A stretch of 32,000 nucleotides of DNA from Candidatus Calditenuaceae archaeon HR02. GTDB taxonomy: Archaea; Thermoproteota; Nitrososphaeria_A; Caldarchaeales; Calditenuaceae. Below the pieces are notes generated by a model that was not told the origin of the DNA, did no database searches, and worked only from the letters and a program-made list of their open reading frames with translations. Below are positions 2,921 to 22,408 of the stretch, in pieces. Numbering within the stretch: the stretch's first letter is position 1; each line of letters begins with the position of its first letter. Both the position numbers and the translations under genes were made by a program. The stretch is from assembly GCA_002898395.1 (NCBI GenBank), contig BEHE01000008.1, positions 51,876 through 83,875 of the forward strand. The letters are read 5' to 3'.

Positions 2921-3727
2921 GTGGTGGAAGAGTTGCATCTTACAGTTGTGTATAGAGGAGATAAGATGGGTGCTGAAAGCAAGGCGTTGGAACTCAAGAG
3001 AATCATTGCTGAACATGGATGTGAGTATGATTTGTATGAGGTGGGTGAGGAGGGAGTAAAGGGTCCTCTGAGCTGCGACTACTTGATAGTCCTTGGAGGT
3101 GACGGCACAATACTCGCCTCCATCCACTCATTAGAGGAGCCTGAAACCCCGGTGCTGGCGATATCGTATGGGAGAGGGGGGTATCTCGCAGATGCAACAC
3201 CTGATGAAGCAAATCATGCCGTGAAATCGCTACTCATCGGAAACTATAGGCTTGAGAGGCTCATGAGACTTGACATATCAATCGACGGGGAATTCATTTC
3301 CAACGCCGTTAACGAGGCTTATGTCTCAAACTCCTCACCGGGTAAAGTGGTTGAGTTCGACTTGGAAGTCGAGAGGCTAAGGCTTCAAAACATAGTTGCC
3401 GACGGCATGGTCTTCTCAACACCTGTCGGATCTACAGGCTACAACTCCTCACTCGGCGGCCCACTCGTCGACGAGGAGTTGGAACTAATCATCACGACAC
3501 CAGTAGCCCCGATCACGAACATCAAGCCACTTGTCTTTTCGCCCCTCAGGAAGATTGTGATGAAGTGTCGGCGAGGACCATTCAGCGTCCTAATAGATGG
3601 ACTCGTGAGGCGGGAGTTTGAGGGAGGAGAGGTCGAGGTCACGAAGTCTAGGCATAGCACAGTCCTAGTGAGGACCTCGGGGGTAACGCTCTGTGAACGG
3701 AGATTCAAGAGGCGTCTCGGTATATAA
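2921..3727 (+). CDS. nadK: NAD kinase
   Basis: Motifs are GGDGTIL, NEAYV and STPVGSTGYNSSLGGP (NAD kinase signature). GTG start at 2921. The N-terminal LHLTVVYRGDK fits the first beta-strand of the family, so the internal ATG at 2966 is less likely. Confidence 0.85.
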   Translation: MVEELHLTVVYRGDKMGAESKALELKRIIAEHGCEYDLYEVGEEGVKGPLSCDYLIVLGGDGTILASIHSLEEPETPVLAISYGRGGYLADATPDEANHAVKSLLIGNYRLERLMRLDISIDGEFISNAVNEAYVSNSSPGKVVEFDLEVERLRLQNIVADGMVFSTPVGSTGYNSSLGGPLVDEELELIITTPVAPITNIKPLVFSPLRKIVMKCRRGPFSVLIDGLVRREFEGGEVEVTKSRHSTVLVRTSGVTLCERRFKRRLGI

Positions 3728-4484: not shown

Positions 4485-5840
4485 ATGAGCAGTAGAGTAA
4501 TTGTCATAGGAGGGGGCGCGGCCGGAGCTTCAGCGGCCGCGAGGGCCAGGAGGATGGACCCAGAGGCCGAGGTGACCCTGATCGAAAGGACTGGGATGAT
4601 AACCCACGCTCCTTGCGGCATCCCTTTCGCGATATCGGGACTCGTCCAGAGCTACAGGATGCTCAGGACCTACTCTCCTGAGAGGTTCGCCTCCGAGAGG
4701 AGGATAAGGGTCCTGACGAACGCGACGGTGACCTCGATCGACGTCGACGGCAAACGAGTCGAGGTCTCGCTCGGAGACGGCAGGACGGAGAAGCTCTCAT
4801 GGGACTCGCTGGTGATAGCGACGGGCGCTAAGCCGCTGATACCTCGTGGACTCGAGGGGGTGGAGGAGGCGAGGCCAGTTCTACTGAGGCACCCGGAGGA
4901 CGTGGTGGAGGCGCAGCGGAGGCTCTCCGGCGCTTCTAAGGTCGCGGTCCTCGGAGGGGGGTACATCGGCGTCGAGGCTGCGGAGGCCCTTATCGACCTC
5001 GGGAAGAAGGTGACGCTGTACGAGATGATGGACAGGCTTCTGCCAACGGCGATCGACGGTGACGTCTCGAGGGTCCTCGAGGAGTCGGTGCGGCGTGCGG
5101 GCGTTGACCTGAGGCTCGGCCAGCCGGTTAGGGCCCTGAGGAGGAGGTCAGATGGGATAGCCGTGATCACCGACGCCGGCGAGGAGGTTTTCGACGAGGT
5201 GGTGATGGGGCTGGGCGTGAGGGCAAACGCGGACCTCGCGGTCTCGGCCGGCGTGAAGCTCGGAGCGACCGGGGCTGTGGAGACCGACGAGTTCATGCGG
5301 ACGAACCTCGAGGGCGTCTTCGCGGCCGGTGATCTGGTAGAGAAGCACCACCTCCTGCTCGGTAAAAGGGTCTGGATACCTCTGGCACCTGCGGCGAACA
5401 AGGAGGGGCAGGTGGCCGGTGCGAACGCCGTGGTCCCGGGATCGCTCAAGATGAGGGGCATCGTGGGAACGGCCGTGACGAAGTTCAGGAACACGTACGT
5501 TGCCAGGACTGGCCTGTCGGAGACGGAGGCCAGGGCCAACGGGTTCAACGTAGAGTCGACCCTGATCAAGGCCAGGACCAAGGCCGGGTACTATCCCGGA
5601 GGGGTTGAGGTGACGGTGAAGATGGTGGCCCAGTCCGGAAGCGGAAGGTTGCTCGGGGTGCAGGTGGTGGGGGACGATCCGGTCGTCGCGGGGTACGCCG
5701 ACGTCGCTGCGACTGCGATAACCGCGGGCTTCACGATCGAGGACCTCTTCTTCACCGACATAGGTTACATGCCGGCCACCGCGCCCGTCTGGCACCCGCT
5801 GATCGTGGCTGCCAGGACCCTCTCGGGAGGAAGGTTCTGA
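4485..5840 (+). CDS. CoA-disulfide reductase / NADH oxidase family FAD-dependent pyridine nucleotide-disulfide oxidoreductase
   Basis: N-terminal VIVIGGGAAGASAA Rossmann motif. A single redox Cys sits in THAPCGIPF, like the SFxNC motif of Nox/CoADR. A second dinucleotide motif is VLGGGYIGVEAAEA, plus GDLV. The gene is strikingly GC-rich compared with its neighbours. Confidence 0.8.
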   Translation: MSSRVIVIGGGAAGASAAARARRMDPEAEVTLIERTGMITHAPCGIPFAISGLVQSYRMLRTYSPERFASERRIRVLTNATVTSIDVDGKRVEVSLGDGRTEKLSWDSLVIATGAKPLIPRGLEGVEEARPVLLRHPEDVVEAQRRLSGASKVAVLGGGYIGVEAAEALIDLGKKVTLYEMMDRLLPTAIDGDVSRVLEESVRRAGVDLRLGQPVRALRRRSDGIAVITDAGEEVFDEVVMGLGVRANADLAVSAGVKLGATGAVETDEFMRTNLEGVFAAGDLVEKHHLLLGKRVWIPLAPAANKEGQVAGANAVVPGSLKMRGIVGTAVTKFRNTYVARTGLSETEARANGFNVESTLIKARTKAGYYPGGVEVTVKMVAQSGSGRLLGVQVVGDDPVVAGYADVAATAITAGFTIEDLFFTDIGYMPATAPVWHPLIVAARTLSGGRF

Positions 5841-6149
5841 GGTAAGGAATAGAGGAGGCGGGGTGGGCGATAGGTTTATGAGCGGTTGAGGGCCTCACCA
5901 AATCCGCTGACTTAAGGACCAAGAGGGGGATGGACCTCTGCCCCCCCCCCGATGGGAGAGGTAGTCGCATGGACCTCGCATACAAACCTCGCGCCAATAG
6001 CTCTCGCATACCTTAGGGCTACGGGCCCTGTCCGGATGGTTAGCTTTTGAGCTACCCAGCGTTCTCTACACGTGCCTATAATATGCTCAGATGAGCAGTG
6101 TTCCTCCTGCAAGGAGGGTTGAGAATAGTCACGGGGCGATGATGTAAGC

Positions 6150-7577
6150 TTATTCCACACAGCAGCTCATCTTCTGCAATGGTCTGAGGAAGGCCTGTGC
6201 ACTTAACTTCAGGGCCTCTGCGTATGTGGGGAACACGTGTATGGTGTTGACGATGTCCATGAATGTCTTGCCATATTTGATGTATAGGGCTGCCTCGGTT
6301 ATGTATTCGGCTGCGTTGTGTGAGACGATGTGCGCCCCCAACACCCTGCCATCGTCGGGCGCTATCACCAGCTTGGCCAGGCCAAGTGCACCCATCATTC
6401 TAGCCTTTGCGACGTTCTCCAAGGAAACTATCCTGCACGAGCATGCACCGAACCTCTTCACCACCTCCCTCTCAGTCAAACCCACTGAAGCCGCCTGCGG
6501 CTCAGTGAATACCACAAATGGAACGGCATCATAATCCATAGAAGCCGAACCCTCTTCGACGATGTTGGAAGCAGCCACCACACCCTCACGAGCAGACAGT
6601 GTCTCAAGCATTAGAGGCTTGGCTACACAGTCACCCGCGGAGTATATGTTGGGTGCACTTGTTCGCATCATCTCGTCCACCTTTATGAAGCCTCGCCCGT
6701 CGACGGCTACGCCACATTTTTCCAGCCCGATTCCATCCGTGTTTGGTTTTCTGCCTGTCGCTACCAGTATGGCGTCAGACTCTATGGTCTGCCTGCCCTC
6801 GTTGGTCACAACCACGGCGTGACTGTGACCTCCATGCTTCGAGAACTCTACAATCCTAGCCTTCATGATAATCCTCATCCCCTCGTCAGCCAATATATTG
6901 GCCAGTGTGGAGGATATCTCAGGCTCCATGTTGGGCAGAATCCTGTCAAGCACCTCGACCAGCGTCACTTGACAGCCCAGTCTCTGCATAGCCTGACCTA
7001 TCTCAAGCCCCACGGCACCCCCGCCCACCAGGAGCATGCTCTCGGGGAGGCTCTCTATCCCCCATATCGTGTCGGTGGTGTAGTATCCCACCTCCTCCAA
7101 CCCAGGTATGCTGGGCACGGATGGACGTGAGCCAGTTGCTATGAGGGCCTTTTGGAACCGTACCTCGCGTACTCCCTCACTTGTCTCCACCGCGATGGTA
7201 TGGGTTGAGGTGAATGAGGCCCTGCCCTCCACATGCTCCACGTTCGGATAATGCTTCAGGACATCAACATATTTCTCGCTACGCATAGAATCTACAAAAC
7301 TGCGGAGAGAGCCCATTAACCTGCCGAAGTCGAGGTCCGCGCCTTTGGGCGTGACTCCGTCGAACAAGGCCATGTGGCTGCTGTGATAGTGTTTGGCAGC
7401 CTCTATCAGGTATTTAGAGGGCACGCAGCCTACGTTGACACATGTTCCACCAAGCCTCCCAGCGGAAACCATCAAGATACTCATCCTACCCCCTGTTAGC
7501 TCGCTAGCCTTTATCGCAGCACTGAAAGCGGCAGCTCCTCCGCCGATTATAATCAAGTCGTATTTGGTATTTCTCAT
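6150..7577 (-). CDS. merA: Mercuric reductase (core enzyme, no N-terminal HMA/NmerA domain)
   Basis: DLIIIGGGAAAFSAA FAD motif and the redox-active GGTCVNVGCVPSK motif. The C-terminal vicinal Cys pair ...QKMSCCVE is diagnostic of MerA versus other class I disulfide reductases. HVFPTYAEALKLSAQAF precedes it. A GAGG lies 9 nt upstream of the ATG. Confidence 0.85.
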   Translation of the reverse strand: MRNTKYDLIIIGGGAAAFSAAIKASELTGGRMSILMVSAGRLGGTCVNVGCVPSKYLIEAAKHYHSSHMALFDGVTPKGADLDFGRLMGSLRSFVDSMRSEKYVDVLKHYPNVEHVEGRASFTSTHTIAVETSEGVREVRFQKALIATGSRPSVPSIPGLEEVGYYTTDTIWGIESLPESMLLVGGGAVGLEIGQAMQRLGCQVTLVEVLDRILPNMEPEISSTLANILADEGMRIIMKARIVEFSKHGGHSHAVVVTNEGRQTIESDAILVATGRKPNTDGIGLEKCGVAVDGRGFIKVDEMMRTSAPNIYSAGDCVAKPLMLETLSAREGVVAASNIVEEGSASMDYDAVPFVVFTEPQAASVGLTEREVVKRFGACSCRIVSLENVAKARMMGALGLAKLVIAPDDGRVLGAHIVSHNAAEYITEAALYIKYGKTFMDIVNTIHVFPTYAEALKLSAQAFLRPLQKMSCCVE

Positions 7578-7617: not shown

Positions 7618-7737
7618 TCATAGACCAGGCATCACCTTCTTTTTTCTTTCCCGCTTAATTCCTTCCGGCATCTCTTCTACTTTCTTTTCCGCGGTCCTTG
7701 CTTCTTCACCCATTCCGCCGCAGCAACACTCACACAT
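7618..7737 (-). CDS. 39-codon Cys-rich micro-ORF immediately upstream of merA (MCECCCGGMGEEARTAEKKVEEMPEGIKRERKKKVMPGL)
   Basis: Hand translation: ATG at 7735-7737, TGA at 7618-7620. It is too short for the ORF track. A TATA-like box lies about 27 nt upstream. No TATA box is visible between it and merA, which starts 40 nt downstream, so co-transcription with merA is likely. Confidence 0.35.
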   Translation of the reverse strand: MCECCCGGMGEEARTAEKKVEEMPEGIKRERKKKVMPGL

Positions 7738-7854: not shown

Positions 7855-9453
7855 TCAGCCAAACATTAACTTATCCATGGTTGACATGATAATTCCTCTC
7901 TTTTCGTCAGGAAGCCTCGCCACACATTCTATCATACTCTTTCTAACTATAGCTCGAAGGTTGCTTGGCAGTGTTTCCAGACCATCCATCATGTATTTCA
8001 CATGTTCCAGCCTCTGCCGGCCTGGACAAGTCGCCAAAAAGTCGAGCCTCTTATACATGACTACTAGTCTCTTTTCTTCCGATAGTGCAGCAAGCATGCC
8101 GGGCATTATCCTAAGTAAAGCTCTGAACTCGTTTCTTAGTGCTAGAGGTCTCACTACCAGCATCAGGATGGCTCCTAAAACAAAGAGAAAAATTCCTATG
8201 GAAAAATCTAGAGGATTGTTGGCATAGTTCAGGCTGTTTGTGAATACATGGATTTTTGTTCTAAAGGCAAATGCAAAGCTATAGATCAGAAGTACCACCC
8301 CCACCCAAAGAAGCAATTGCTTAAGGAATAGCTGTCGTCTTGTTTCTAAGCCTTCCAATAATCGTGACTTATACATCATCCTCACTGGAACCAAGATGAT
8401 GAAAGATATGACAACCGGAATTATGGCTGGCCAGTCTTCAGAACTTGGCACTAGAACGGTGAATGGTACTACCGCCCGAAAGGCATTAAGAAATCCATAG
8501 AGAAGGATCAATAGACCGAAGAACAGTAAGGATTCTTTGGCAAAATTTATTTTGTTTTTGAGTACTCCGCTGTTTCCAAGCAACCTCTCTCTTCTCAAAA
8601 TCATTTTGAATATTCCTCTTATGGGAATGAGAAACATTATTCCCCAGAAGGCCAGAATAAACCCCCACCAATTCCATCGTGGCAGAGTAGGATCGATGTG
8701 AAGCATCAGGATAAGCCCCATTCCGGTGAGCAAAACACCCTTGACAAGATTTACCCCACCAGGCAAAATCAGGTCAGGTCTGAAGGCAAACATTTCCCCC
8801 AATTCCAAGCCACTAACATACTGACCATGTGTCTTGCTGGATCCAAGCCATGCGGCAGAAGCCCAGAATCCAATTAGTAATCCGATAAGGACGAACGCAG
8901 GCAAGCTTAATTTTGTAGTTGCCGTTAAAAAGAATTGCTCCATGGAGAGCTTGCCAGATTCCTCCAACTGGTGTAGTTCATGCAATAAAGGTATAGCAAC
9001 TGTTAATCCAAAGGTAGCAATGGCGATGAACAATGGCATGAAAATTACCCCAGCAATAAACAAAACCGGTTTGTACTTGAAGTAATGCTGAAGCTCGGTA
9101 ATCGGATAGAGCATTATGCTCATAACCGCAGCAACTAGGCCGATTCCAATGATGGCTTCTGGCAAAAATAGTGGAACCTTTCTTTGTGTAAGGGAAACCG
9201 ACATGATAAGATATAGAATCCCCAAAAAAGGCAATGAGAGAAAGTGCAGGATCGGGATAGATTTTCTAACTTTTCCAACGTAAGCTGTGAATGTAAATGT
9301 TACGGGAAGAGAATACGCAACCAAAAGGCCCTCTAAAAATTTTTCATTACTAAATAGGTTTCCCATCAGCCAGTACCATGACAAGAATGTAAAAAGGAAT
9401 AGCAAAAAGAGTGGAACAACGCCCACTATGAAAGGAATACTTCTCATACTCAT
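7855..9453 (-). CDS. Polytopic membrane protein (>=12 predicted TM segments) with a C-terminal 4 x 19-aa Met-rich LPxEKR repeat domain
   Basis: 532-aa ORF that is hydrophobic throughout. The last 76 aa form four exact 19-residue units. It starts 7 nt after the stop of the upstream 130-aa repeat protein gene, so the two are probably an operon. Confidence 0.7.
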   Translation of the reverse strand: MSMRSIPFIVGVVPLFLLFLFTFLSWYWLMGNLFSNEKFLEGLLVAYSLPVTFTFTAYVGKVRKSIPILHFLSLPFLGILYLIMSVSLTQRKVPLFLPEAIIGIGLVAAVMSIMLYPITELQHYFKYKPVLFIAGVIFMPLFIAIATFGLTVAIPLLHELHQLEESGKLSMEQFFLTATTKLSLPAFVLIGLLIGFWASAAWLGSSKTHGQYVSGLELGEMFAFRPDLILPGGVNLVKGVLLTGMGLILMLHIDPTLPRWNWWGFILAFWGIMFLIPIRGIFKMILRRERLLGNSGVLKNKINFAKESLLFFGLLILLYGFLNAFRAVVPFTVLVPSSEDWPAIIPVVISFIILVPVRMMYKSRLLEGLETRRQLFLKQLLLWVGVVLLIYSFAFAFRTKIHVFTNSLNYANNPLDFSIGIFLFVLGAILMLVVRPLALRNEFRALLRIMPGMLAALSEEKRLVVMYKRLDFLATCPGRQRLEHVKYMMDGLETLPSNLRAIVRKSMIECVARLPDEKRGIIMSTMDKLMFG

Positions 9454-9460
9454 ATGAGCT

Positions 9461-9853
9461 TTACATCTTTATCCCTAGCTCCCTCATCATCTTAAGCATC
9501 ATTTCGCGACTTTCTGCGGGCAGTCCCATTAGAATAGCTTTTACTACCCGCATCTCTTTTAACTGTTTTTCAGAAGACAATTCCTGAAGCGCTGCAATAT
9601 GTGTTTTCATCAACTTTACCTGGTCTGACTCTGGAAATCCCATTAGGACCTGAAGACGCGTTCTTGCCAGCTTCTCATATTTTTCTTCGGGCAAATCAAG
9701 TGCAACGTCAAGCATCATCTTCATCGCATCTTTTCTCTTGTCATCAGGCATCTCTGCAAAGCTTTTCAGCCGCGTTTCCATCATAGCTTTCCTTGTATCC
9801 TCGGAAACAGTAGCAAGGCTCTCAACCATTTCTTTCACAGGATTGCTTGCCAT
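9461..9853 (-). CDS. Soluble all-repeat protein made of 19-aa Met-rich LPxEKR-type units, 13% Met
   Basis: 130 aa with no TM segment or signal peptide. It has five clean 19-20 aa units plus one degenerate unit, and 17 Met residues. A CTTAAATACT box lies about 35 nt upstream of the ATG. Confidence 0.7.
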   Translation of the reverse strand: MASNPVKEMVESLATVSEDTRKAMMETRLKSFAEMPDDKRKDAMKMMLDVALDLPEEKYEKLARTRLQVLMGFPESDQVKLMKTHIAALQELSSEKQLKEMRVVKAILMGLPAESREMMLKMMRELGIKM

Positions 9854-9966
9854 ATTCCATCAATGATAACTATCCATTATGTAGTATTTAAGCCACCTAG
9901 TTTATACCGTTATAGTGGCTATGCTATTCCATAGTAAGCATTGTATCAAGCCGGTTCACTCTCGCT

Positions 9967-10161
9967 TCATCTTCTTCTTTTCGAACTTGAGAACATCACA
10001 GCAGCTCTGACCTCTTCTTTTTGCGAATCTTTTTTCAAAAGACGGAATATCTTGATATCTACAGCAAGTCCTGCTCCAGCCCCTGCAATACCAAGAATGT
10101 ATGGTACTCCAAAATAGCCGCCGATTATAAATCCAGCGAACAGGCCGATACAGCAGAACAA
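9967..10161 (-). CDS. Small hydrophobic protein with an N-terminal vicinal Cys pair (MFCCIGLFAGFIIGGYFGVPYILGIAGAGAGL...) and a basic tail
   Basis: 64 codons with a TTG start. A TTAAATAT box lies about 27 nt upstream. There are one or two Gly-rich TM segments. The short length and non-ATG start keep confidence low. Confidence 0.35.
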   Translation of the reverse strand: MFCCIGLFAGFIIGGYFGVPYILGIAGAGAGLAVDIKIFRLLKKDSQKEEVRAAVMFSSSKRRR

Positions 10162-10258
10162 CTCATGATAAAAAACGGAAGGAAATATTTAAGCACTAAA
10201 GTATAAAAATGCATAGCCAATATCGTTGAGAAAAGTTAGAAAACTCATTCGACGAATG

Positions 10259-10295
10259 AAAAATTAGGGGAACTGATTAGGGTAGGGTGTTCCCC
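10259..10295 (-). terminator. Hairpin plus T5 tract directly after the hxlR-type gene stop
   Basis: GGGGAAC (10267-10273) pairs with GTTCCCC (10289-10295) as a 7-bp stem with a 15-nt loop. It begins 1 nt after the TAG at 10297-10299 and is followed on the minus strand by TAATTTTTC (T5 at 10259-10263). Confidence 0.35.
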
Positions 10296-10296
10296 T

Positions 10297-10686
10297 CTAT
10301 TTTTTATCCTTTTCTATCAATGTACAGGAGCAATGGGCGACGACCGTCCCTTTCTGTTTCAGCGCCCACTGAAGGATTGGAATTATAGCTGCCCTGAGCC
10401 CCTCCCCCTCTTTAGTGAGCGTATATTCAACTCTTGGAGGGATTTCGTTGAATGTCTCTCTTTTTACCAGGTTGTGTTTCGCCAGGTCTTTTAGTGTGTC
10501 TGCAAGTATCTTTGGACTGATTCCCTGTAGCTCCTTCATCAATTCGTTGTAGCGTATCCTCCCGTGGTTGCCTATTTCATTCACTACCAGGAGAGTCCAT
10601 TTTTTGCCGATTAGGTCGATCACACCTTCTAGTGGGCAAAGGCATATAACACGGCTATCAGCTTTGCTACTTTTCTTGGTCGCCAC
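10297..10686 (-). CDS. HxlR-family winged-helix transcriptional regulator with N- and C-terminal CxC motifs
   Basis: CPLEGVIDLIGKKWTLLVVNEI...IRYNELMKELQGISPKILADTLKDLAKHNLVKRE...PPRVEYTLTKEG is the canonical HxlR/DUF24 core. GTG start. Cys15-x-Cys17 and Cys119-x-Cys121 are present. Confidence 0.85.
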   Translation of the reverse strand: MATKKSSKADSRVICLCPLEGVIDLIGKKWTLLVVNEIGNHGRIRYNELMKELQGISPKILADTLKDLAKHNLVKRETFNEIPPRVEYTLTKEGEGLRAAIIPILQWALKQKGTVVAHCSCTLIEKDKK

Positions 10687-11415
10687 AATGTTCGTACAAA
10701 CCAGATAGCATAAATACTTTATTGTGAGATTTGGTAACCGTCGTTTCTTTACTTATCTCACAAATTATTCTCAGCGTAGCTCAATTCTGGACAGGACACG
10801 GGTCTAAGAGTAATTAGATATGAAGATCGTACTGTTACGAGAGACCAAAAGGGTGGATAATTGGGCGTGAGTGATGTAGCTGTAGCTAAGATATCCGGAA
10901 AATTGTGCAAGATGCTGGCAGGTCAGGGACATTTTTGATGTATGGGACAGCAGGAACCCGTGAAGGAGTTCTACGCGTTTGGCAAAATGCTCAGGCAAAT
11001 ACTGAGGAGCACCATAAGGTCAGACAAGAATTATCGTAAAGTGGAAGACAGGCTAAGTTAAGGTTTGGAAATGAGTATCAAAGTTCTGATATCGTTACAC
11101 TACCACTAAGGGGACTGTCTCCAGCAGGCGGCTGAAGATAGAGAAGAGAGGCTTTTTATGTTCCTTGAAAAAGAAAGGGTGCGATAGGGCAACAAAGTAG
11201 GTGAAAAATCTTCCAACTGTGTGTCGTTGGGGGCAAGGGGTCTGCGGTGCGACAGATGCAGACTACGCGGACCGATTCTCTATGACCATGCGCTGGAGTA
11301 TCTAGCAATCCTTTTAAAAAGATAAACAATTAATTTTCATAAAATATTTCAAGCCCCTCTTCAAGTCTGGGATATTCTACAGTTTATTCTTTCGCCATAT
11401 TCATCATGATAAACC

Positions 11416-12531
11416 TCACCAGTAAAGAAGCCAAGGAAAGAATCGTTCAACTATTAGGTAGCCAGGACTCGCAGAGGAGGCTGCCGCTGGCATGAAATAC
11501 AAGGCACATATTGCCAATGGAACTATCATTGCAATATGTGCCATGAACGGAAAAATGAAAAACCGAGGATAGTTGAATCGTATAGCGGGCATCATAGTTG
11601 GCATTACAGCCATCATAACAGCAAAGACAAAAATGCCCCATAGTATCGCCAGAGTCCACGAACCTCGCCCAAAGAGCATCGTATACGCAATTCCATATGT
11701 TGCGCCGTTGATGAAATGCCACAGATATCCCAGAAACAATATCCGAGCAGCAGAAATTTTCTCTTCCTTTAAAGTCATAGAGAAAGCAGCGGGGAAAAGC
11801 CTGAAAAAATCTTGGACGCTAATTTTAGGCATTTTCTTATGACCGCCGGGTGTGGCCATCCTCAGCTTTGCAGGTATGACTCCACGGTTTTCACGTATGT
11901 TTTCAGATGATGCAGAAAATACGAGTTCGTCCATGGTTCTCATTAATACAGATCTCTTTTCCGCAGGTAGAGTGGATAGAGCTTCGATTTGAGACTTTAC
12001 AAAGACTTCTCTCTTATCATCAGGTAGCATTTCTATTCCTCTCATCATTGCTAGCATCATCATCTTTCTCGCATCGTCTGGCAGGTTGCTTAACCATTGA
12101 ACTCTTTCGGCGATCATGCGATTTCTCTGCTGTTCTGGCATGTTGGCTATTTCTTTCACCAAATTCGCGATCACATTGCCCATGAATTTTGCCGCGACCC
12201 CAGACCACATCATACCAAATATCTTAGGCATATCTGCAGGAAACTCACCAAGTCTGACTCCGGTTAGTCTCACTATGTCGAGAGCTATTGTACCCAAAAG
12301 ACCACCAACGGCGCCCCATAAGATTAACTGTAGAATAGAACTGTTGACTGCAATTGACGATGTCAGCGTGATAACGAATACTGCCAAGGACACTATACCT
12401 ATCGTTTTAAAGAATTTGGGTGCAGGAAACGCCAGGATTCTGTCGGCCATGAGCCCTGCAGTAGGCGCACCCAGTGTAAGCATTATCGGAATCCATAAAG
12501 ACCAATCTACATTACTGAGTTCAATAGGCAT
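11416..12531 (-). CDS. Membrane protein with a central 4 x 19-aa Met-rich LPxEKR repeat domain between N- and C-terminal TM bundles
   Basis: 371 aa. About 3 TM segments, then residues 131-206 form four exact 19-aa units, then about 4 TM segments (WHFINGATYGIAYTMLFG...). It is Met-rich throughout. Confidence 0.7.
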   Translation of the reverse strand: MPIELSNVDWSLWIPIMLTLGAPTAGLMADRILAFPAPKFFKTIGIVSLAVFVITLTSSIAVNSSILQLILWGAVGGLLGTIALDIVRLTGVRLGEFPADMPKIFGMMWSGVAAKFMGNVIANLVKEIANMPEQQRNRMIAERVQWLSNLPDDARKMMMLAMMRGIEMLPDDKREVFVKSQIEALSTLPAEKRSVLMRTMDELVFSASSENIRENRGVIPAKLRMATPGGHKKMPKISVQDFFRLFPAAFSMTLKEEKISAARILFLGYLWHFINGATYGIAYTMLFGRGSWTLAILWGIFVFAVMMAVMPTMMPAIRFNYPRFFIFPFMAHIAMIVPLAICALYFMPAAASSASPGYLIVERFFPWLLYW

Positions 12532-12869
12532 GAGTAAAAGTGTGGAAAGCCATGCTATAAGTTGTCAAGTTTTTCAAAGCATTGTAGCTATTACATACAA
12601 TAGTTAGGAAGGACAATCGTTGCCTGCTAAGAATCTACAGTCTATTATAACGGGTTCCTTTTTCAGGTCCTGACCACCACTAATGCTACAACAGTGGTCA
12701 TTGATATTGTGTCGGTTATCGATCTAATTGTAAATTTAGATGAGCTTTGGTATCGATACAGATTCGGAATTAGTCGGCATAACGCTTATGCCACAAACTA
12801 TGATCCGAATATAGTCATCAAATAGAAAAAGTTAGGATCACAGAACCATACAACCAAACGCACTTGCAA

Positions 12870-13388
12870 CTAGTCGTCTCTTCTCTTCTCCGTATGGGCT
12901 GTTGTTGTCTTACGGCTTTCAAGTACGCTGACAGCATTAAGCGTCTTGAAGCCGCCTAGCTTGTATATAGAGAAGAACACGATACTAATCGATATCACTG
13001 TGAATATCGGCGAATAATATGTGAGGAAAAGGATAAGTCCGAGCGGAAGTAGAATACCTATGAACGAGAAACAGGCAGGGCAAATGCCAAACATTAATCC
13101 AATAACAGACCCTACAAACCCCATCCTTGTACTTTTTTCAGACTTGCAGTCCAGACACATGTTTCTTGTAAAAGAATAGAGTGAGATAAACATGCCAAAC
13201 AGGATGGAAAAGGCTATGTATAGTACCGAGTTAAGTGGCTTTTGCTGCAGGTCAAGCAACCATATTCTGAAAGCTAGTGGCGTGTTTATCAGCTGAATTA
13301 TCGGAAGTAGAGAGAAAATGCATGCTGCTGCCACTGCAATAACAGGCTTATTCTTTACAGCATAAAAGAGCAGTATGTGTGCTGCCAT
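12870..13388 (-). CDS. Four-TM membrane protein with a loop CxxC (CLDC) and an intramembrane CPAC motif; paralog of 14005..14604
   Basis: 172 aa. The segment ...YSFTRNMCLDCKSEKSTRMGFVGSVIGLMFGICPACFSFIGILLPLGL... carries both motifs. It is the last gene of a tight three-gene operon. A T5 tract (12826-12830 on the minus strand) lies about 40 nt after the stop. Confidence 0.65.
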   Translation of the reverse strand: MAAHILLFYAVKNKPVIAVAAACIFSLLPIIQLINTPLAFRIWLLDLQQKPLNSVLYIAFSILFGMFISLYSFTRNMCLDCKSEKSTRMGFVGSVIGLMFGICPACFSFIGILLPLGLILFLTYYSPIFTVISISIVFFSIYKLGGFKTLNAVSVLESRKTTTAHTEKRRDD

Positions 13389-13397
13389 TTCCCATCA

Positions 13398-14018
13398 TCA
13401 CTTTTGTGTTAAAAGAGGTGCAAGCACCTGCTTTATCTTCGAATATTCAAGTGGATATACATCCACCCACCGGATTATGCCATCCTTATCTAGTACGTAT
13501 TTTGTATCAAGATACCGCACCTTATATTGCGCTACCATATCTACGCCTGCTGCCACATACCAGTCCTCCCTGCCATACTTATTCTTCCAGTCTAAAAACT
13601 GGCTCTCAGTCTCCCTTGGGTCTACAAATACAATTAATACGTTGAAAGCATTGCCTCCAGTCTCGTCATCATATCTGGCCAGATTCTGAGCGCCTATCTG
13701 GCAGGGTGTGCACCAGGTGGTTGTAAAGAAGATCACAAGCGGCTTTCCATGGAATGTTGCTTTTGAGATAGGCCCCTTCAGAGGGTCTATGAGTCTGAAG
13801 TCGGGTGCCAACTGTCCCACTTCTAACCCTTCTACGACGACTGTTCCGGGGGCGACCGTAAGATTCCGACCACCAACGCTCGATGACGCTTGTGAATTAG
13901 ACAGGGTCATAAAAACCGCGCCTACTATTACAGCAATTCCTATTACACCTATAATAGTGGCAAAAAACTTAGCTGTGGATTTCTTTGGTTGTGACCCTCT
14001 TTTCTTACCCTTTCCCAC
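13398..14018 (-). CDS. Membrane-anchored TlpA/ResA-like thioredoxin-fold thiol:disulfide oxidoreductase (WCTPC)
   Basis: Basic N-terminus plus one TM anchor (FFATIIGVIGIAVIVGAVFMTL). The redoxin domain has PLVIFFTTTWCTPCQ and DKDGII, consistent with an extracytoplasmic Trx-like protein. Confidence 0.85.
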   Translation of the reverse strand: MGKGKKRGSQPKKSTAKFFATIIGVIGIAVIVGAVFMTLSNSQASSSVGGRNLTVAPGTVVVEGLEVGQLAPDFRLIDPLKGPISKATFHGKPLVIFFTTTWCTPCQIGAQNLARYDDETGGNAFNVLIVFVDPRETESQFLDWKNKYGREDWYVAAGVDMVAQYKVRYLDTKYVLDKDGIIRWVDVYPLEYSKIKQVLAPLLTQK

Positions 14019-14604
14019 AACAACTCCCCTCCTTCATTTTACTGATTTTGTCTGAAATCGAGAAAGTGCCTAGAGCCAGAACTGCCACAGTTAAGGGAGC
14101 CATGTAGCGGCTGTAGAGGGATAGGGAAGAGAAAGCAATTGCCCCGATGACAGAAACCATCAACCCGCCTCCACAGCATGCAAAGCTTGTAAAGAATGCG
14201 GGTAGCAAGCCCAAAAACCCCTCCAACCCTGTCGGCTTTCTAACTCTGCATACAGCGGCTAGTCTTCTAGAATAAAATGTTAGAGCAACATTAAGCCCAA
14301 CAAAGAACGACGACACTATCACGAAGGCGAGAGCATCATAAAAGATGAAGAAAAATACGTCTGGCGCAGGAATAACCAAGATTCCTATTGAGTATAACCT
14401 TATCATGGGGTAGTTGTCTGTGAAGGAGGTTAAACCAGGTCCGTATCTTATTACTCCAACAGCAACCATGTAGAATGAAGCGTAGGCTAGTCCAGACGCC
14501 AACAGTATTCCTAAATAACTTTTTGATTTTATGACATGAAAAATAGGTGCTAACATTCTCCTCTCTAAAAGGATGCTCTGCATGTATCCGCATGTTACTG
14601 TCAA
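14005..14604 (-). CDS. Membrane protein with an intramembrane vicinal Cys pair (FACCGGG) and a C-terminal SCCGKG tail; paralog of 12870..13388
   Basis: It overlaps the Trx-like gene by 14 nt. The segment ...FYSRRLAAVCRVRKPTGLEGFLGLLPAFFTSFACCGGGLMVSV... aligns with the CLDC/CPAC region of the 172-aa protein. The start is uncertain. The ATG at 14583 sits about 27 nt downstream of the TATA-like 14611-14632 and may be the true start. Confidence 0.65.
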   Translation of the reverse strand: MTVTCGYMQSILLERRMLAPIFHVIKSKSYLGILLASGLAYASFYMVAVGVIRYGPGLTSFTDNYPMIRLYSIGILVIPAPDVFFFIFYDALAFVIVSSFFVGLNVALTFYSRRLAAVCRVRKPTGLEGFLGLLPAFFTSFACCGGGLMVSVIGAIAFSSLSLYSRYMAPLTVAVLALGTFSISDKISKMKEGSCCGKG

Positions 14605-14965
14605 ACCGAGTATTTAAAGAATATTTTTATACCATAGTAGTTACTATCCTAATTGATAGTATTACAGCTTAGGCGACAAAGACTAACGTAAAAACCTCAG
14701 TAGATGTTTGATGTTGCAACATTATCCTTTCTTGAAGTAGCTTGGCATCTTTAACAATGTCTTTGAAGATAGCCAAGTACAAAACATCTGCATGCATAAT
14801 GCTATTACCCCAGCCAGCACATCCAAATCAAGCGTAACCTGAAAGAATACCACACCACACAACCACGCGTTAATCTGCTTGCTCAACTGTTTACCCAATC
14901 CGCTATACTCGCGCCACGTCTCATACCCAACTATCTTCTCACAATCCTCTCAGACACATAACGTT

Positions 14966-18978: not shown

Positions 18979-19401
18979 CTACACTTCAGAGAGATGCTTT
19001 ATGTTTGTTAATGGGACTTTTGCTACAACCTCTTTATCGGCTGTATAGAGGGTTGCATTCTGTAACATGGCTAGGGAGACATAAACTGCATCATATAGCG
19101 TTATGCCGAACTTATATGCCAGTTCCACCGCTCTTTCACGCAGTTCCCCTTTAAACTCGTAGGTAGTTATGCTCATGTCTTCTAGGGCTTTGAGAGCTGT
19201 CTTGACATCCTCAATCCCAAATCTTGGATTATACCTTAAGGCGTTAGCCACCTCGTAGTGTAGAAGGACTGGCGCTATCAAGTCTATCTCACCGTTAGCA
19301 TACCTATTCCTTATTGTTAATGCCTCCTTCCTTAGTGGCTCGACGTTGAACCATTTCACTGCTACACTTGCGTCAAGTACGAGTATCTTCTCCTCCTCCA
19401 T
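18979..19401 (-). CDS. vapC: PIN-domain toxin VapC
   Basis: ILVLDASVAVKW (first acidic residue), ...LIAPVLLHYEVANAL, DAVYVSLA and LYTADKE give the full PIN acidic quartet pattern. Confidence 0.85.
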   Translation of the reverse strand: MEEEKILVLDASVAVKWFNVEPLRKEALTIRNRYANGEIDLIAPVLLHYEVANALRYNPRFGIEDVKTALKALEDMSITTYEFKGELRERAVELAYKFGITLYDAVYVSLAMLQNATLYTADKEVVAKVPLTNIKHLSEV

Positions 19402-19637
19402 CTGATCACCTCATCCTCAGCTATCCAGCCAGACCCCTCCGATAACTTCGCCAGCCTATCCATCTCCTCGATAGCACGCTTAATGGTTGTGGTGTCTTTA
19501 GTGGACCTCATTCTTCGCTCCTCCTGCTCCACAACAGTTTCAACATACCTCCTAAGGAGCTCGCTCCAGTTTATGTGGCGGAGCCTATCTATCCTAGCTT
19601 TAAGCCTCTTATCGACCCGGAAGCTGATGATGCTCAC
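19362..19637 (-). CDS. vapB: Ribbon-helix-helix antitoxin (VapB)
   Basis: From the GTG at 19635-19637: (M)SIISFRVDKRLKARIDRLRHINWSELLRRYVE... is an RHH N-terminus. An ATACTTATTAAA box lies about 25-30 nt upstream. The ORF-track start at 19871 is probably an over-extension. It overlaps vapC by 40 nt. Confidence 0.6.
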   Translation of the reverse strand: MSIISFRVDKRLKARIDRLRHINWSELLRRYVETVVEQEERRMRSTKDTTTIKRAIEEMDRLAKLSEGSGWIAEDEVIRWRRRRYSYLTQV

Positions 19638-19822
19638 ATGTCTTGTAATACATCGCTGTTTAATAAGTATTACAGTTCCCCACTCCGCAGCCCAACATAT
19701 ATAGCAGTTTTCCACCCCCTTATTAGAGAGAAGGATCTCAGCCTTAGGAGCTAGGTGGGGCGTGGTGAGCGGGGAAGCCTTCAGGGAGGGCATGAGATGC
19801 CTTATCGGGAAAGAGTTAGGAG

Positions 19823-20272
19823 ATGAATAGGCATAAGAGCGGGAAGGTGCTGATTGACGAGTGGGTCCCAACGGGAGAGGTAGGGGTAGAAAGCGTACAG
19901 GAGAGAATCGTTGGCCAAAATCCAGTTATAAATCGACTACATGTTTGGTTTGCGCGTCGTCCACCCGTGGCTTCTAGGGCTGCTGTTCTTGCCTCCATAC
20001 TCCATCCCGAGACCACTAGAGAGGAGTTTCTTAGGCTGTTGGGCATTCCTCACGACAGGAACGTGGTCGCGGCTGCCGAGAAACTAGCTAGGGCCAAGGC
20101 CAACAAGGTTAGGCTTAAGGAGAATCCGTTTACTTGGGAGAGGGCCTTCAAATATACTCCGCCCAAGCCTCAGCCAGATGAGCTAATGGAGAGTGTTAGG
20201 GAGTGGGGCCATAGGATATTGAGACTCTTCAATCCATCTAGGAAGTTTAGCTACAGACGAGACAGTGGCTAA
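19823..20272 (+). pseudogene. Truncated N-terminal DUF1156 domain of a defence-island DNA methylase-like protein
   Basis: GKVLIDEWVPTGEVGVES...NRLHVWFARRPPVASRAAVLASIL is the DUF1156 signature as I recall it. Full-length members are several-fold longer. This frame ends after 149 codons and runs into AT-rich sequence of a different character. Confidence 0.6.
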
Positions 20273-21240
20273 GAATAACAGTAACATGTAGAGAAGTTCT
20301 ATAACAATATGAACTCCAAGACTGTCAAAAGCATTAAGGAGATAGCGACTACGATGGCCCTAATACACAACATACTTCTCGAGAACAGAGAGGGAGCTGC
20401 AACACTTGATAGTGCAAAGGATAGAGTGTATGAAAGTAGCTTACCTTGCATAGCATAGAAGATATTTTTAGCTGTACGTGGATGTGTGGGTAGTCTGGGT
20501 AAAGTTGTCGGTATAGATTCATCTGAGCATCTGAATTTCATTGGTTTCGTTTCTGGAACATTAGATCCTATCTGCGCATATACTGGTATTAGTGATCTCA
20601 GATACGAGTTGAGCCGATCGACTAGAGTTCCCGCAAGCGCGCTAGAGGGCTCGCTTAAAAGGAATTTAGCGAAGTTGATATTGAAGATAGTCTTAGTAGA
20701 GAGTCTTGGAAAGGTCTACGCCGATGTTGAGATATCTCAACCACCAGGAAAACTTGGTAATTAGATCATCCCATGGGTTACCAATAAAATTGGCCGATAT
20801 AATTGCTTGGACGAACTTAAGAAGACCACACGACATAACACGAGGCGGCAAGTTTTCGGGGGCAGTTAAGTTAACTTGAAAGAGGAACCGGCAAAAATGG
20901 TAAGGTCAGAGTTTAGAATTTAACGTCGGGCTCACATCAGCCCCCGCCCCTATGCCTGTTCATTCATCCCCGAACTTTTTCAGGCATAGCATGAGGGGTT
21001 CGGACCCTCATCCAGTTATCACTCCCCTTTCCTTACCTTTAAGCCTTTCCTATAAATGGGTGGGGACTGTCAACTAGGTGTTACGCCTCCTCGGGTGTAA
21101 GGAAGGTGTTAGGTACTCAGGAGCGCGAATCGTCTGCAAGAGGTACCTGTAATACGCTCGTTGCTCCTAGCACCATTTAACCAACATGTCTACAAGGTGG
21201 TTAAGTGCGTTGTTATCCCTTACGATGCCCAGATGAGCGA

Positions 21241-22173: not shown

Positions 22174-22408
22174 GTATAACTCCTTTAAGCGGCTGAAACT
22201 CTCCTGAAACCAATATTCGATATGGAATAGGGATGTCTCTCATAAGACGCTCTATTTTAGCACAAGTATCTTTATCGTCCTCCCTAAGCATGACGATCAC
22301 ATACAGAGAGCCCTGATGCCCTCCTATACCAACTCCAGATACACCTTCTATCTCCATGAGGCGAGACTTCACTTCTCTTAAACGCTCCTCAAATTCATCT
22401 TGACTCAT
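22163..22408 (-). CDS. Small protein resembling the pro-domain-like module of the downstream protease
   Basis: 81 aa. IEGVSGVGIGGHQGSLYVIVML...IPIPYRILVSGEFQ aligns with NDVNGIGITYTNGRQALAILL...FGVPVTAIVAGELQ of the protease N-terminus. It overlaps the protease gene by 11 nt. Confidence 0.55.
   Translation of the reverse strand: MSQDEFEERLREVKSRLMEIEGVSGVGIGGHQGSLYVIVMLREDDKDTCAKIERLMRDIPIPYRILVSGEFQPLKGVIHER

Follow-up and report, generated by a model that had tools for sequence, protein, structure and literature searches.

Three neighbouring proteins encoded in the window (the whole 32,000-nucleotide stretch of DNA that was analysed) share a repeat domain, here called REP, which is a discrete four-helix domain of about 76 residues that is rich in methionine, free of cysteine and previously undescribed. 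The three proteins form a trio composed of an m371-type protein, a stand-alone REP protein (s130 in the window) and an m532-type protein. This trio is a genetically linked module with merA and, because it recurs beside merA in many phyla, is probably a hitherto unrecognised part of mercury resistance. The features are collected in Table 1.

Table 1 Positions, in window coordinates, of the trio, its REP domains and the neighbouring features
Feature	Position	Strand	Remarks
merA, mercury(II) reductase	6150..7577	-	TIGR02053 541.8 bits vs cut-off 454.45
m532	7855..9453	-	532 aa, polytopic, about 12 TM helices
REP of m532	7858..8085	-	residues 457-532, four units, homolog-only HMM 86.4 bits
s130	9461..9853	-	130 aa, 17 Met, 0 Cys, no signal peptide
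Six 19-aa units of s130	9467-9808	-	residues 16-129, 19-residue register
CTAT-N8-ATAG palindrome	9919..9934		s130-m532 promoter region
HxlR-family regulator	10297..10686	-	PF01638 81.6 bits; N-terminal Cys
m371	11416..12531	-	371 aa, six-TM membrane protein
REP of m371	11914..12141	-	residues 131-206, four units, homolog-only HMM 78.2 bits
CTAT-N8-ATAG palindrome	12588..12603		upstream of m371
o199-trx206-o172 context operon	12870..14604	-	thioredoxin-like / Cys-rich membrane proteins
CTAT-N8-ATAG palindrome	14644..14659		upstream of o199-trx206-o172 operon

An earlier note had described three minus-strand reading frames with a strict 19-residue periodicity; the frames lie where it had placed them, all of the units it listed were reproduced, and its count of the s130 methionines was correct. 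A lag of 19 gave the top BLOSUM62 autocorrelation in all three regions (0.91, 0.63 and 1.37), with lag 38 second, and the lag-19 signal was matched by none of 2000 shuffles even when the maximum over lags 5-38 was taken. The 19-residue register runs through s130, m532 and m371 as 6+4+4 units with no indel. The repeat had been called exact, which holds for the period but not for the sequence, mean pairwise identity between units being 23% with a maximum of 58%. The first unit of s130, thought to be degenerate, is genuine: residues 14-84 align end to end with a domain HMM built from homologs only, the window copies being left out of the profile (53 bits, E 1e-17). The s130 protein has six units, of which units 1-4 are the counterpart of the four-unit domain found in m371 and m532 and are followed by two extra units.

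The suggestion that four units make up a discrete domain was borne out by the homologs, since a four-unit block of 78-79 residues is found at the same location in nearly all of the 41 m371 and about 105 m532 homologs. The homolog-only HMM gave scores of 74-87 bits for the window copies (86 for m532, 78 for m371 and 74 for s130), and an hhalign comparison of the s130 family with the domain from the membrane proteins gave 99.5% probability. AlphaFold2 models of the two membrane fusions, a check the note had proposed, gave an ordered domain with one helix per 19-residue unit (pLDDT 92.6 and 96.0; pTM 0.89 and 0.94), the helices being residues 133-147, 152-167, 171-186 and 190-206 in m371 and 457-473, 476-492, 495-511 and 514-529 in m532 (the latter in P0047 numbering, which is window numbering minus 2). 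Each helix begins with an L-P-[DE]-[DE]-x-R N-cap, and the units are non-equivalent with signatures of their own: M..G-L in unit 2, T-Q in unit 3 and M-x-[ST]-M-D in unit 4. A census of 1.84e9 representative proteins returned 293 REP clusters having the same few architectures. REP occurs as an insertion in m371, as the C-terminus of m532 and as the s130 protein of about six units (stand-alone or membrane-tethered, with s130 homologs in 29 other loci); further fusions are to SPW membrane domains and 2-TM anchors. Short m371 cores that lack REP have a separate REP gene adjoining (L008 and L041) and keep a Met-rich loop at the REP site. Two archaeal REP proteins end in HHGxPME...CxxC at the C-terminus.

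In m371 the insertion site is a predicted cytoplasmic loop between TM3 and TM4, and REP as a whole is predicted to be cytoplasmic, the positive-inside rule being the sole basis for the topology. The m371 TM core holds an invariant cluster of Met, His, Asp and Arg residues (D85, R88, D100, M101, M104, H272, M306, M307, M310, M313, M314, H332 and M335). Neither m371 nor m532 matched a PDB fold, and m532 matched no Pfam model.

In agreement with the note, whose author could not place the repeat in a family, it falls in no characterised one: a search of the Pfam and NCBIfam profiles gave no model at threshold for REP in the window proteins. Like the alpha-solenoids (HEAT, ARM, TPR and FliG/MgtE-N-like repeats) REP is built of tandem short helices, but its unit is a single 19-residue helix rather than two to three helices of 34-47 residues, and it has a constant four units (about six in the soluble protein). 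No alpha-solenoid family gave a significant match (FliG, E 0.18; MgtE_N in 2 of 43 members, E about 0.01). The nearest profile was PF11304 (DUF3106), an uncharacterised bacterial family with no known function, mentioned only in passing in the papers found, which is likewise built of repeated helices some 19-20 residues long that begin with an L-(s/p)-P-E-x-R-type cap. We consider it very unlikely that REP is a divergent, metal-unrelated branch of DUF3106 and its merA linkage incidental. DUF3106 is the only recurrent Pfam match (22 of 46 m371 members and 12 of 43 domains) and some relatives exceed its gathering score (P0156, 28.6 bits; P0162, 25.2; P0176, 35). However, with 21.4, 17.8 and 22.4 bits the window proteins fall short of the 24.3-bit cut-off, in keeping with the superficial likeness the note had remarked on, and the similarity lies mostly in a generic LPxxxR helix-cap motif that also attracts Sigma70_r4_2. 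Moreover, REP has four non-equivalent units, is extremely Met-rich and is tied to two specific membrane families, and its linkage to merA is too frequent, across too many phyla, for chance company.

That linkage was seen upon tabulating the neighbourhoods of the homologs. Synteny of the trio extends to about 38 loci, which represent more than 10 phyla of Archaea and Bacteria (among them Thermoproteota, Methanobacteriota, Heimdallarchaeota, Nitrospira, Chloroflexota, Deinococcota, Actinomycetota, Bipolaricaulia and Bacillota). In 21 of the 28 loci of at least 8 kb, a bona fide MerA is encoded no more than 10 kb from the trio, and all 10 of the neighbouring reductases tested exceeded the TIGR02053 cut-off. 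In L041 the order is merA, a 10-nt gap, m371 core, REP and m532 in one contiguous same-strand string, and in L040 an m371 core precedes merA by 38 nt, with merT, merF, merE and merB in the same locus. The MerA of the window is of the core type that lacks an N-terminal HMA domain but has the C-terminal SCCVE tail, and this tail together with the profile matches agrees with the neighbours named in the note (merA, an HxlR regulator and a Cys-rich thioredoxin operon). The soft-metal link it had drawn was upheld and much strengthened, and mercury specifically is indicated by the occurrence of the gene set beside MerA in many phyla.

Within the window, s130 and m532 are probably co-transcribed because only 7 nt separate the end of the first from the start of the second. 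The CTAT-N8-ATAG palindrome occurs three times in the 32 kb, each time at one of the upstream sites of Table 1, and from this common element we infer shared regulation of s130-m532, m371 and the thioredoxin operon; in the relative L037 palindromes of this type lie upstream of merA and the s130-like genes. The HxlR protein is a candidate regulator of the island, and its homologs adjoin the trio in L004, L007, L010, L014 and L037. In the operon, which is conserved in L037, o199 has CC motifs, o172 has CxxC motifs and trx206 is a membrane-anchored AhpC/TSA-thioredoxin-like protein with WCTPC. HxlR and thioredoxin-like genes recur among the homologs: HxlR or ArsR regulators and CcdA-like genes are often linked to the trio, and thioredoxin-like or AhpC/TSA-like genes accompany it in 15 loci. 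CMD, OsmC, glutaredoxin or thioredoxin and NADPH-supplying genes (G6PD/6PGD and NAD kinase) also lie nearby. Many HxlR-family regulators sense thiols or oxidants, and this company would suit a redox module whose Met-rich domains in the cytoplasm serve as a sacrificial sink or Met-sulfoxide switch in thiol-oxidative stress (Hg(II), HOCl or peroxides). We regard this as highly improbable: no locus listing contained a methionine sulfoxide reductase gene, the position-specific conservation of three methionines points to a specific site and not to a bulk sink, and the partner enzyme, with its C-terminal Cys pair, is a true MerA and of neither the RclA nor the Har type.

The composition of the proteins is unusual. 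The two membrane families contain 0.1-0.2% Cys and the REP proteins 0.34%, and Met accounts for 7.7% in m371 and 12.8% (up to 19%) in REP proteins, with MPMPAMA-type Met-rich linkers and tails outside the REP helices. Three REP columns are 88-97% Met with Leu, Ile and Val nearly absent: M34 (97%, with Ile at 3% the sole alternative), M72 (89%) and M75 (88%), followed by D76 (83% Asp). In the soluble paralogs the M75-equivalent column is His in 20 of 30 and Arg in 7 of 30, M81-x-x-H84 giving an MxxH helix spacing in s130 where m532 has M-S-T-M. Judged from the alignment columns, this pattern is best read as ligand-like rather than that of a generic hydrophobic core. It might instead belong to a pure scaffold, REP assembling m371, m532 and the soluble protein or docking on the TM domains to regulate them, with no metal involved and the methionines forming a plastic hydrophobic core or groove. 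The complex would still act in mercury or thiol stress, on a substrate such as a thiol conjugate, a lipid or another protein. The SRP54 M domain and calmodulin, to which REP has no detectable homology, likewise have a helical, flexible, Met-dominated hydrophobic surface, and although the analogy is functional only, these "methionine bristles" favour a scaffold or ligand groove over metal binding. A scaffold is a serious rival, if somewhat unlikely in our estimate. It would account for one domain being present in three co-encoded proteins with fusion and fission events, for rigid packing of REP on the TM domains (as the very high pLDDT and pTM of the models imply), for the position of the conserved methionines (unit positions 9, 10 and 13) on the same hydrophobic helical face as Leu14 and Leu17, for arginines (R8, R15, R27 and R68, 92-97%) being the most conserved residues, for Arg replacing the putative ligand His, and for the patatin-like lipases found near the trio in 8 loci. 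However, packing alone seldom yields a column with 97% Met and no Leu or Val among paralogs that share at most 50% identity, Met is also enriched in the disordered linkers and tails and in the loop of REP-less m371, the Met-to-His exchange is a ligand-like substitution, and the almost complete lack of Cys is suggestive of direct contact with a thiophilic agent.

The metal considered in the note was Hg, Cu or Ag; the evidence favours Hg. Met3(His) sites and MxM/MPM tracts are a hallmark of Cu(I)/Ag(I) proteins (CusF/CusB/CusA, CopC, Ctr1 and SilE/PcoE), and some loci (L005, L009 and L010) contain CsoR, CusF, zf_CopZ, HMA genes or Cu-type P-type ATPases. The trio could be a Met/His module for monovalent metals that merely shares metal-resistance islands with merA, which we think quite unlikely. 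Compared with the frequency of MerA, P-type ATPases are found in only about 3 loci and CusF or CsoR in 3-4, merA and the trio are contiguous with gaps of 10-40 nt in L041 and L040, and Met-rich Cu/Ag sites are typically extracytoplasmic. The analogy that had been drawn to SilE, PcoE and CusF extends to Met-richness, MxxM/MxxH helix spacings and association with soft-metal resistance genes, but fails on location, fold and homology. SilE and PcoE are intrinsically disordered periplasmic Met/His binders of Ag(I)/Cu(I) and CusF is a periplasmic beta-barrel, whereas REP is predicted to be a cytoplasmic, ordered all-alpha domain without a signal peptide whose gene partner is merA rather than sil, pco or cus, and no Pfam or NCBIfam match between them was found at E<=1. 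Overall, the interpretation given in the note is partly supported.

We tentatively propose, as a reading that falls a little short of an even chance, that REP is a cytoplasmic Met-based relay for a soft metal (most likely Hg) and at the same time the module by which a new membrane system associated with mer is assembled. All REP domains would lie at the cytoplasmic face of the membrane, where REP may serve as a common docking module by which the Met-rich soluble protein joins the two Cys-free membrane proteins. The near-invariant mid-helix layer (the unit-2 Met, the unit-4 Met-x-x-Met/His and the Asp) would transiently hold the metal, most likely Hg(II), although that these methionines converge in space is inferred solely from their mid-helix positions. 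Acting with the inner-leaflet-side Met/His cluster of m371, REP would pass the metal on, or buffer it, at the membrane so that it reaches MerA without the use of thiols, which would trap Hg(II). Several observations speak against such a relay. Since the conserved methionines share a helical face with leucines, they could simply form a Met-rich core or protein-binding groove, and the putative ligand column that is Arg in some stand-alone proteins fits a relay poorly. Cytoplasmic thioether sites are expected to lose Hg(II) to cellular thiols, which makes them chemically awkward, and the mer transporters and chaperones known to us all use Cys pairs. The islands already hold Cys-pair candidates for Hg handling (o64, o172, o199, trx206 and a 39-aa MCECCCGG peptide), L040 has MerT, MerE and MerF, and 7 of the 28 long loci have no merA within 10 kb.

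Like the canonical mer set (MerT, MerP, MerC, MerF, MerE, MerH and NmerA), the trio consists of small or polytopic membrane proteins and a soluble partner beside merA with a metal- or thiol-responsive regulator, and its proposed role is Hg(II) delivery to MerA. Unlike those Cys-pair proteins it is essentially Cys-free, and no homology to them was detected apart from one weak MerF match (E 0.086) among 46 members. If the relay proposal is true, the trio would serve the mer system as an accessory module (transport/hand-off) of a previously undescribed kind.

The three neighbouring minus-strand genes of the window that carry the Met-rich 19-residue repeat are those described in the earlier note, and all of its units were recovered in 19-residue register without insertions or deletions. 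The source genome is the Aigarchaeota/Caldarchaeales MAG 'Candidatus Calditenuaceae archaeon HR02', in which the 371-residue (m371) and 532-residue (m532) membrane proteins are annotated as hypothetical proteins HRbin02_00948 and HRbin02_00944 (100% identity to P0001 and P0047, respectively). In the repeat regions of these proteins and of the 130-residue stand-alone protein s130, lag 19 was the peak of the BLOSUM62 autocorrelation and lag 38 was second; none of 2000 composition-preserving shuffles reached the observed lag-19 value, not even with the highest score over lags 5–38 counted. The repeat had been called exact, which holds for the period but not for the sequence, the units being ~23% identical to each other around the consensus L-P-[ED]-[ED]-K-R-x-x-[ML]-M-[KR]-T-[MR]-[LI]-[ED]-x-L-x-x. 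Recent duplication of the units at the DNA level was rejected, as the copies share only weak similarity (61–71% over 41 nt; family D1).

The relatives that homolog searches gave, 46 for m371 and 109 for m532, are archaeal and bacterial, and none has a Pfam domain on record in the precomputed Pfam field. A four-unit block of 78–79 residues occupies a constant position in nearly all of them, which bears out the suggestion of a discrete four-unit domain (here called REP); five m371 relatives of 256–269 residues lack the block. The units are not equivalent, each having its own signature across the family (Table). A domain HMM built from homologs only, with the window copies left out, scored 86 bits for m532, 78 bits for m371 and 74 bits for s130. 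The first s130 unit, noted before as degenerate, is indeed present but is a true unit 1, since this HMM aligns s130 residues 14–84 end to end. Profile–profile comparison of the membrane-protein REP domain with 30 aligned stand-alone proteins gave 99.5% probability, with s130 itself as one of the 43 rows of the domain alignment, a circularity from which the homolog-only HMM is free. As a word-indexed homology search with s130 alone gave no match, s130 itself included, its homologs were taken from gene neighbourhoods and from a profile search run exhaustively against 1.84 billion representative proteins. The latter found 293 clusters, 125 of them at E<=1e-10, with few architectures: stand-alone proteins of ~120–170 residues, m371-type and m532-type proteins, tandem duplications and fusions to SPW-repeat membrane domains. 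Four long multi-repeat proteins matched by the domain profile (P0176, P0238, P0277 and P0280) were rejected as members, being look-alikes with LPxxxR caps and ~37-residue units, one with an F-box. REP is thus a new conserved four-helix domain that occurs in three co-encoded protein families, and the new domain family comprises about 300 clusters at 50% identity.

Repeat regions, REP unit signatures, palindromes and the Cys-rich operon
Feature	Location	Strand	Detail
s130 repeat	residues 16-129		six units
m532 repeat	residues 457-532		four units
m371 repeat	residues 131-206		four units
REP unit 1			LPExxRxxxMxxR
REP unit 2			PxxQRxx(H)xxxMxxGL
REP unit 3			LPEExRxxxxxTQ
REP unit 4			LPxExRxxxMx[ST]MD
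CTAT-N8-ATAG	window 9919-9934		upstream of s130-m532
CTAT-N8-ATAG	window 12588-12603		upstream of m371
CTAT-N8-ATAG	window 14644-14659		upstream of o199-trx206-o172 operon
L037 palindromes	L037 2677, 6465, 6496
o199-trx206-o172 operon	window 12870-14604	(-)

AlphaFold2 models of m371 (pLDDT 92.6, pTM 0.89) and m532 (pLDDT 96.0, pTM 0.94) were built with the family alignments. Each 19-residue unit forms one helix of 15–17 residues joined to its neighbours by turns of 2–4 residues, and the REP regions are among the highest-confidence parts of both models. Foldseek found no PDB analogue for either model (best E 0.33 and 0.16, TM-scores ~0.1), and PDB sequence-profile searches with the m371 family, the m532 family, the domain and the s130 family had no significant match; the top one, a TetR regulator (E 0.0095 over 42 residues), was judged motif-level and rejected. 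By the positive-inside rule, REP is preceded in m532 by cytoplasm-side basic segments (after TM8, TM10 and TM12) and in m371 by such a segment after TM3. Homologs that an N-terminal two-TM hairpin tethers likewise have a basic stretch before REP, and s130 has no signal peptide, its N-terminus (MASNPVKEMVESL...) not being hydrophobic. Hence, a cytoplasmic location near the membrane is predicted for REP.

The C-terminal half of m532 (~residues 228–455) resembles three copies of a TM hairpin, each with a terminal [IV]P[IV]R and then a basic amphipathic helix (FLIPIRGIFKMILRRERLL, ILVPVRMMYKSRLLEGLE and MLVVRPLALRNEFRALLR). Kinship of these hairpins to the SPW repeat domain that is fused to some REP proteins was rejected (hhalign probability 0.2%). 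Bacterial m532 homologs of ~400 residues lack the first ~100–130 residues.

Across 145 domain sequences the most conserved REP columns are four arginines (92–97%). M34 is Met in 97%, with Ile (3%) the sole alternative, followed by M72 (89%), M75 (88%), G37 (85%) and D76 (83%). These are all mid-helix at unit positions 10 and 13, and in a four-helix up-down arrangement they would form one layer. Of the 30 stand-alone proteins, 20 have His in the M75-equivalent column and seven have Arg.

Such a layer could be no metal site at all. The main rival to the mechanism we prefer holds that REP is purely structural or serves assembly, with a Met-lined core or groove, and we consider this rather unlikely. 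Against metal binding, the Met residues lie on the hydrophobic helical face, and a subset of proteins has Arg in the putative ligand column. Thioethers are also poor competitors of cytoplasmic thiols for Hg(II), and the same islands already have Cys-pair candidates for Hg handling.

The earlier note could place the repeat in no family, and this stood: Pfam, NCBIfam, PDB profile and Foldseek comparisons gave no accepted relative, and no family model reached its threshold for the window proteins. The sole recurrent match was DUF3106 (PF11304), against whose gathering cut-off of 24.3 bits s130 scored 17.8, m371 21.4 and the m371 domain alone 22.4; hmmscan gave no DUF3106 match to m532. The match recurs weakly in 22 of the 46 m371 members and 12 of 43 domains. 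Because a few relatives pass the cut-off (P0156 at 28.6 and P0162 at 25.2), a distant relationship of REP to DUF3106 is possible, and that REP is just an uninformative DUF3106 relative is one of the smaller rival explanations. A Pfam scan of all m371 members gave weak matches alone, to DUF3106, Sigma70_r4_2 and DUF6789 (3/46), of which those to Sigma70_r4_2 stem from the common LPxxxR helix-cap motif. The LTxxQ family (CpxP/Spy/ZraP, PF07813) gave no Pfam match at E<=1 and is periplasmic, whereas REP is predicted to be cytoplasmic. Units of HEAT, TPR and ARM repeats have two or three helices in 34–47 residues, in contrast to one helix per 19 residues in REP, and all matches to solenoid-type models were sub-threshold (TPR_LAA1_C, E 0.038; FliG, E 0.18). 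The searchable literature (merA with HxlR in archaea, DUF3106, Met-rich proteins with merA, and Calditenuaceae with mercury) held no description of these genes. The three genes together (m371-type, REP and m532-type; the trio) are without a curated family, an NCBIfam name or a structural analogue.

The analogy to SilE/PcoE/CusF drawn from the Met clusters fails on compartment, fold and homology. SilE and PcoE are secreted or periplasmic, whereas REP is predicted to be cytoplasmic and s130 lacks a signal peptide; no SilE/PcoE model was among the Pfam/NCBIfam matches at E<=1 for s130, m532 and m371. CusF-type proteins are small OB-like beta-barrels with a His/Met2/Trp site whereas the AlphaFold2 REP regions are all-helical, and Pfam/NCBIfam hits for the window proteins included no CusF model. 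As putative ligands, motifs of the HxxM, MxxH and MxxM type, which bind Ag(I)/Cu(I) in SilE/PcoE, are present and conserved in REP; the fusions have M-x-[ST]-M-D in unit 4, and most soluble proteins have M-x-T-H-[MI]. Another of the smaller rivals is a Cu/Ag system that hitch-hikes in metal islands; P-type ATPases are rare near the trio (~3 loci).

About 38 independent loci came from homolog neighbourhoods and from scanning a single genome per species. The archaeal loci are from Thermoproteota (Caldarchaeales, Geothermarchaeales and Nitrososphaeria-type), Methanobacteriota and Heimdallarchaeota, and the bacterial ones from Nitrospira, Chloroflexota/Anaerolineae, Trueperaceae, Acidimicrobiia and other Actinomycetota, Bipolaricaulia and Bacillota, the last represented by the cultured species Terrihalobacillus insolitus. 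Most loci have adjacent m532-type, stand-alone REP and m371-type genes, and where the m371 core lacks its REP insert a separate REP gene lies beside it (L008, L041). This pattern of fusion and fission suggests that the trio proteins act together.

Within the fetched flanks, 21 of the 28 loci of at least 8 kb encode a MerA homolog whose C-terminus bears the diagnostic Cys pair, and all ten reductases tested passed the TIGR02053 MerA equivalog cut-off (526–622 bits versus 454). The distance from the end of m532 to merA downstream is 277 nt in the window. In L041 a single strand carries merA, a 10-nt gap, the m371 core, REP, m532, PIG-L, thioredoxins and G6PD/6PGD, and in L040 an m371 core precedes merA by 38 nt, the locus further comprising MerF/MerT, MerE, MerB, HMA and thioredoxin genes. 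The trio is strongly linked to bona fide merA across phyla. The soft-metal reading is partly supported, strongly so in its mercury context but not in its SilE/PcoE/CusF analogy, and metal binding by REP stays putative. Tabulation of gene neighbourhoods, which the earlier note had proposed, placed homologs recurrently near merA, thioredoxin-like genes and HxlR/ArsR regulators: thioredoxin/AhpC-TSA-like proteins in 15 loci, CcdA/DsbD-like proteins in 11, and ArsR (9–12 loci) or HxlR regulators. A TM protein of 57–77 residues directly follows m532 in ten loci, and patatin-like lipases are near the trio in eight.

The patatin-like phospholipase loci are L016, L022, L025, L026, L028, L033, L034 and L037 (Acidimicrobiia, a Trueperaceae MAG and a Calditenuaceae relative). 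Genes that may supply NADPH recur at the mer/trio loci: G6PD with 6PGD (L008, L041), a GH15 glucoamylase/glucodextranase (L005, L007, L040) and an NAD kinase (window 2921–3727 and L008). The PIG-L deacetylase of L041 possibly serves synthesis of low-molecular-weight thiols.

A previously unlisted 39-residue ORF (MCECCCGGMGEEARTAEKKVEEMPEGIKRERKKKVMPGL; window 7618–7737, minus strand) stops 40 nt before merA. Small ORFs with an MCxCCG start and an acidic tail recur in L007 (21104), L010 (7304) and L030 (14787), L037 has a called 42-residue gene of this type directly upstream of merA, and L013 has such an ORF at 6231, just upstream of its m532 homolog. The 39-residue product may be a leader peptide or a small peptide that binds Hg(II). 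Between hxlR and s130 lies o64 (window 9967–10161, minus strand), which encodes 64 residues with two predicted TM helices and begins MFCC; a vicinal Cys pair opens its TM1 and recalls Hg(II) carriers of the MerF/MerT type by sequence, and no Pfam match was above threshold. Of the o199-trx206-o172 operon, o199 has FACCGGG and C-terminal SCCGKG motifs, trx206 is a membrane-anchored AhpC/TSA-thioredoxin-like protein with WCTPC, and o172 has CLDC and CPAC. The operon is kept in L037 (39–54% identity). Its two membrane proteins have no Pfam family, and in bacterial loci a CcdA/DsbD-like protein beside a Trx-like gene replaces them.

Window positions 4485–7577 form a compositional mosaic: the pyridine-nucleotide disulfide oxidoreductase gene (4485–5840) has 64.7% GC and merA 54.2%, versus 42–46% in the remaining island (7855–14604) and 45–51% in the flanks. 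Since merA is also only 52% identical to its L037 counterpart, compared with 68–70% for its neighbours, merA and the reductase gene may have been acquired or replaced separately. Positions 18979–31171, with plentiful PIN-domain genes (18979–19401, 25783–26175, 28884–29297) and apparently fragmentary genes (DUF1156, ATPase_2 and DUF234 pieces), look like a variable region.

The 32 kb contain exactly three copies of the palindrome CTAT-N8-ATAG (expected 0.65, for a pattern derived post hoc from two of the three regions), with the extended form (G)TTACTAT...ATAGTAAC. L037, a syntenic relative (identity 70% for s130, 69% for m532 and 68% for HxlR), has a like palindrome upstream of its merA operon (GTAACTATC-N6-GATAGTTAC) and upstream of its s130-like gene. 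In the window and L037 the sites are confined to promoter regions of island transcription units. As the palindrome is common to both sets of promoters, the units that bear it may form one regulon, plausibly under HxlR, with CTAT-N8-ATAG as a candidate HxlR operator. The shared palindrome is the sole, and indirect, pointer to a possible Hg(II)-inducible expression of the trio and a role in Hg resistance. A cross-phylum operator was rejected, as distant loci have none and only the window and its close relative L037 do, and the half-site TTACTAT alone was dropped as too unspecific. An Rfam scan of the window gave no match, and no tRNAs were found in it.

The composition of the trio sets it apart from the known mer transporters. 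MerT, MerC, MerF, MerE and MerH need Cys pairs in or near TM helices, whereas Cys makes up only 0.1% of the m371 family and 0.2% of the m532 family, and no alignment column of either has Cys at 20% or more. Pfam models for MerT, MerC, MerF and MerE gave a single match to the m371 members (MerF, 1/46, E 0.086). The m371 family is 7.7% Met and has an invariant or near-invariant cluster (D85, R88, D100, M101, M104, H272, M306, M307, M310, M313, M314, H332 and M335) at the inner-leaflet/cytoplasmic side of the TM bundle. The stand-alone REP proteins (29 loci) have 12.8% Met within REP (up to 19% in individual proteins), 0.34% Cys, and Met-Pro-rich linkers and tails. A Met-oxidation sink or switch is a further smaller rival explanation for such proteins.

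The tails of the stand-alone proteins vary (L004 1017–1757, L007 8832–9857, L013 7864–8340, L015 8307–9182, L021 2722–3195). Two archaeal proteins end HHG[KQ]PME...CxxC, possibly a Cys-based metal site, and several bacterial ones have a Trp-rich C-terminus, WW[EQK]FW[KR], possibly a membrane anchor.

The mechanism we prefer, though tentatively, combines docking with a Met-layer Hg(II) relay or buffer toward MerA. REP would be a common cytoplasmic module that docks a Met-rich soluble or tethered protein onto both membrane proteins. Transient binding of Hg(II), or less likely of Cu(I)/Ag(I), by its Met layer together with the m371 Met/His cluster would relay or buffer the metal toward MerA without thiols. 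It is distinctly unlikely, in our view, that the trio is a new Cys-free, Met/His-based mercury machinery that takes up Hg(II) or relays it to MerA at the cytoplasmic face of the membrane. Such a machinery would consist of two membrane folds without a solved analogue and a new four-helix Met-triad domain, and would serve Archaea and deep-branching Bacteria, whose mer loci are not known to have dedicated transporters.

Mercury resistance is among the best-studied detoxification systems. Archaea, and many Bacteria that are thermophilic or branch deeply, generally do not have the classical MerT/P/C/F/E proteins, which leaves the route of Hg(II) to MerA there an open question. The trio provides concrete candidates: a three-gene module in >10 phyla that repeatedly adjoins merA or shares an operon with it. 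REP residues M34, M72, M75 and D76 and m371 residues H272, H332 and the Met cluster can be tested, and T. insolitus, as a cultured host, gives a practical handle. If true, a Cys-free machinery would overturn the rule of cysteine pairs as the universal basis of Hg(II) trafficking in biology. Because the trio is nearly Cys-free and 8–19% Met, the opposite of what is expected of Hg(II) ligands, either outcome would be informative: a new thioether-based mode of trafficking, or a new accessory function in mercury stress.
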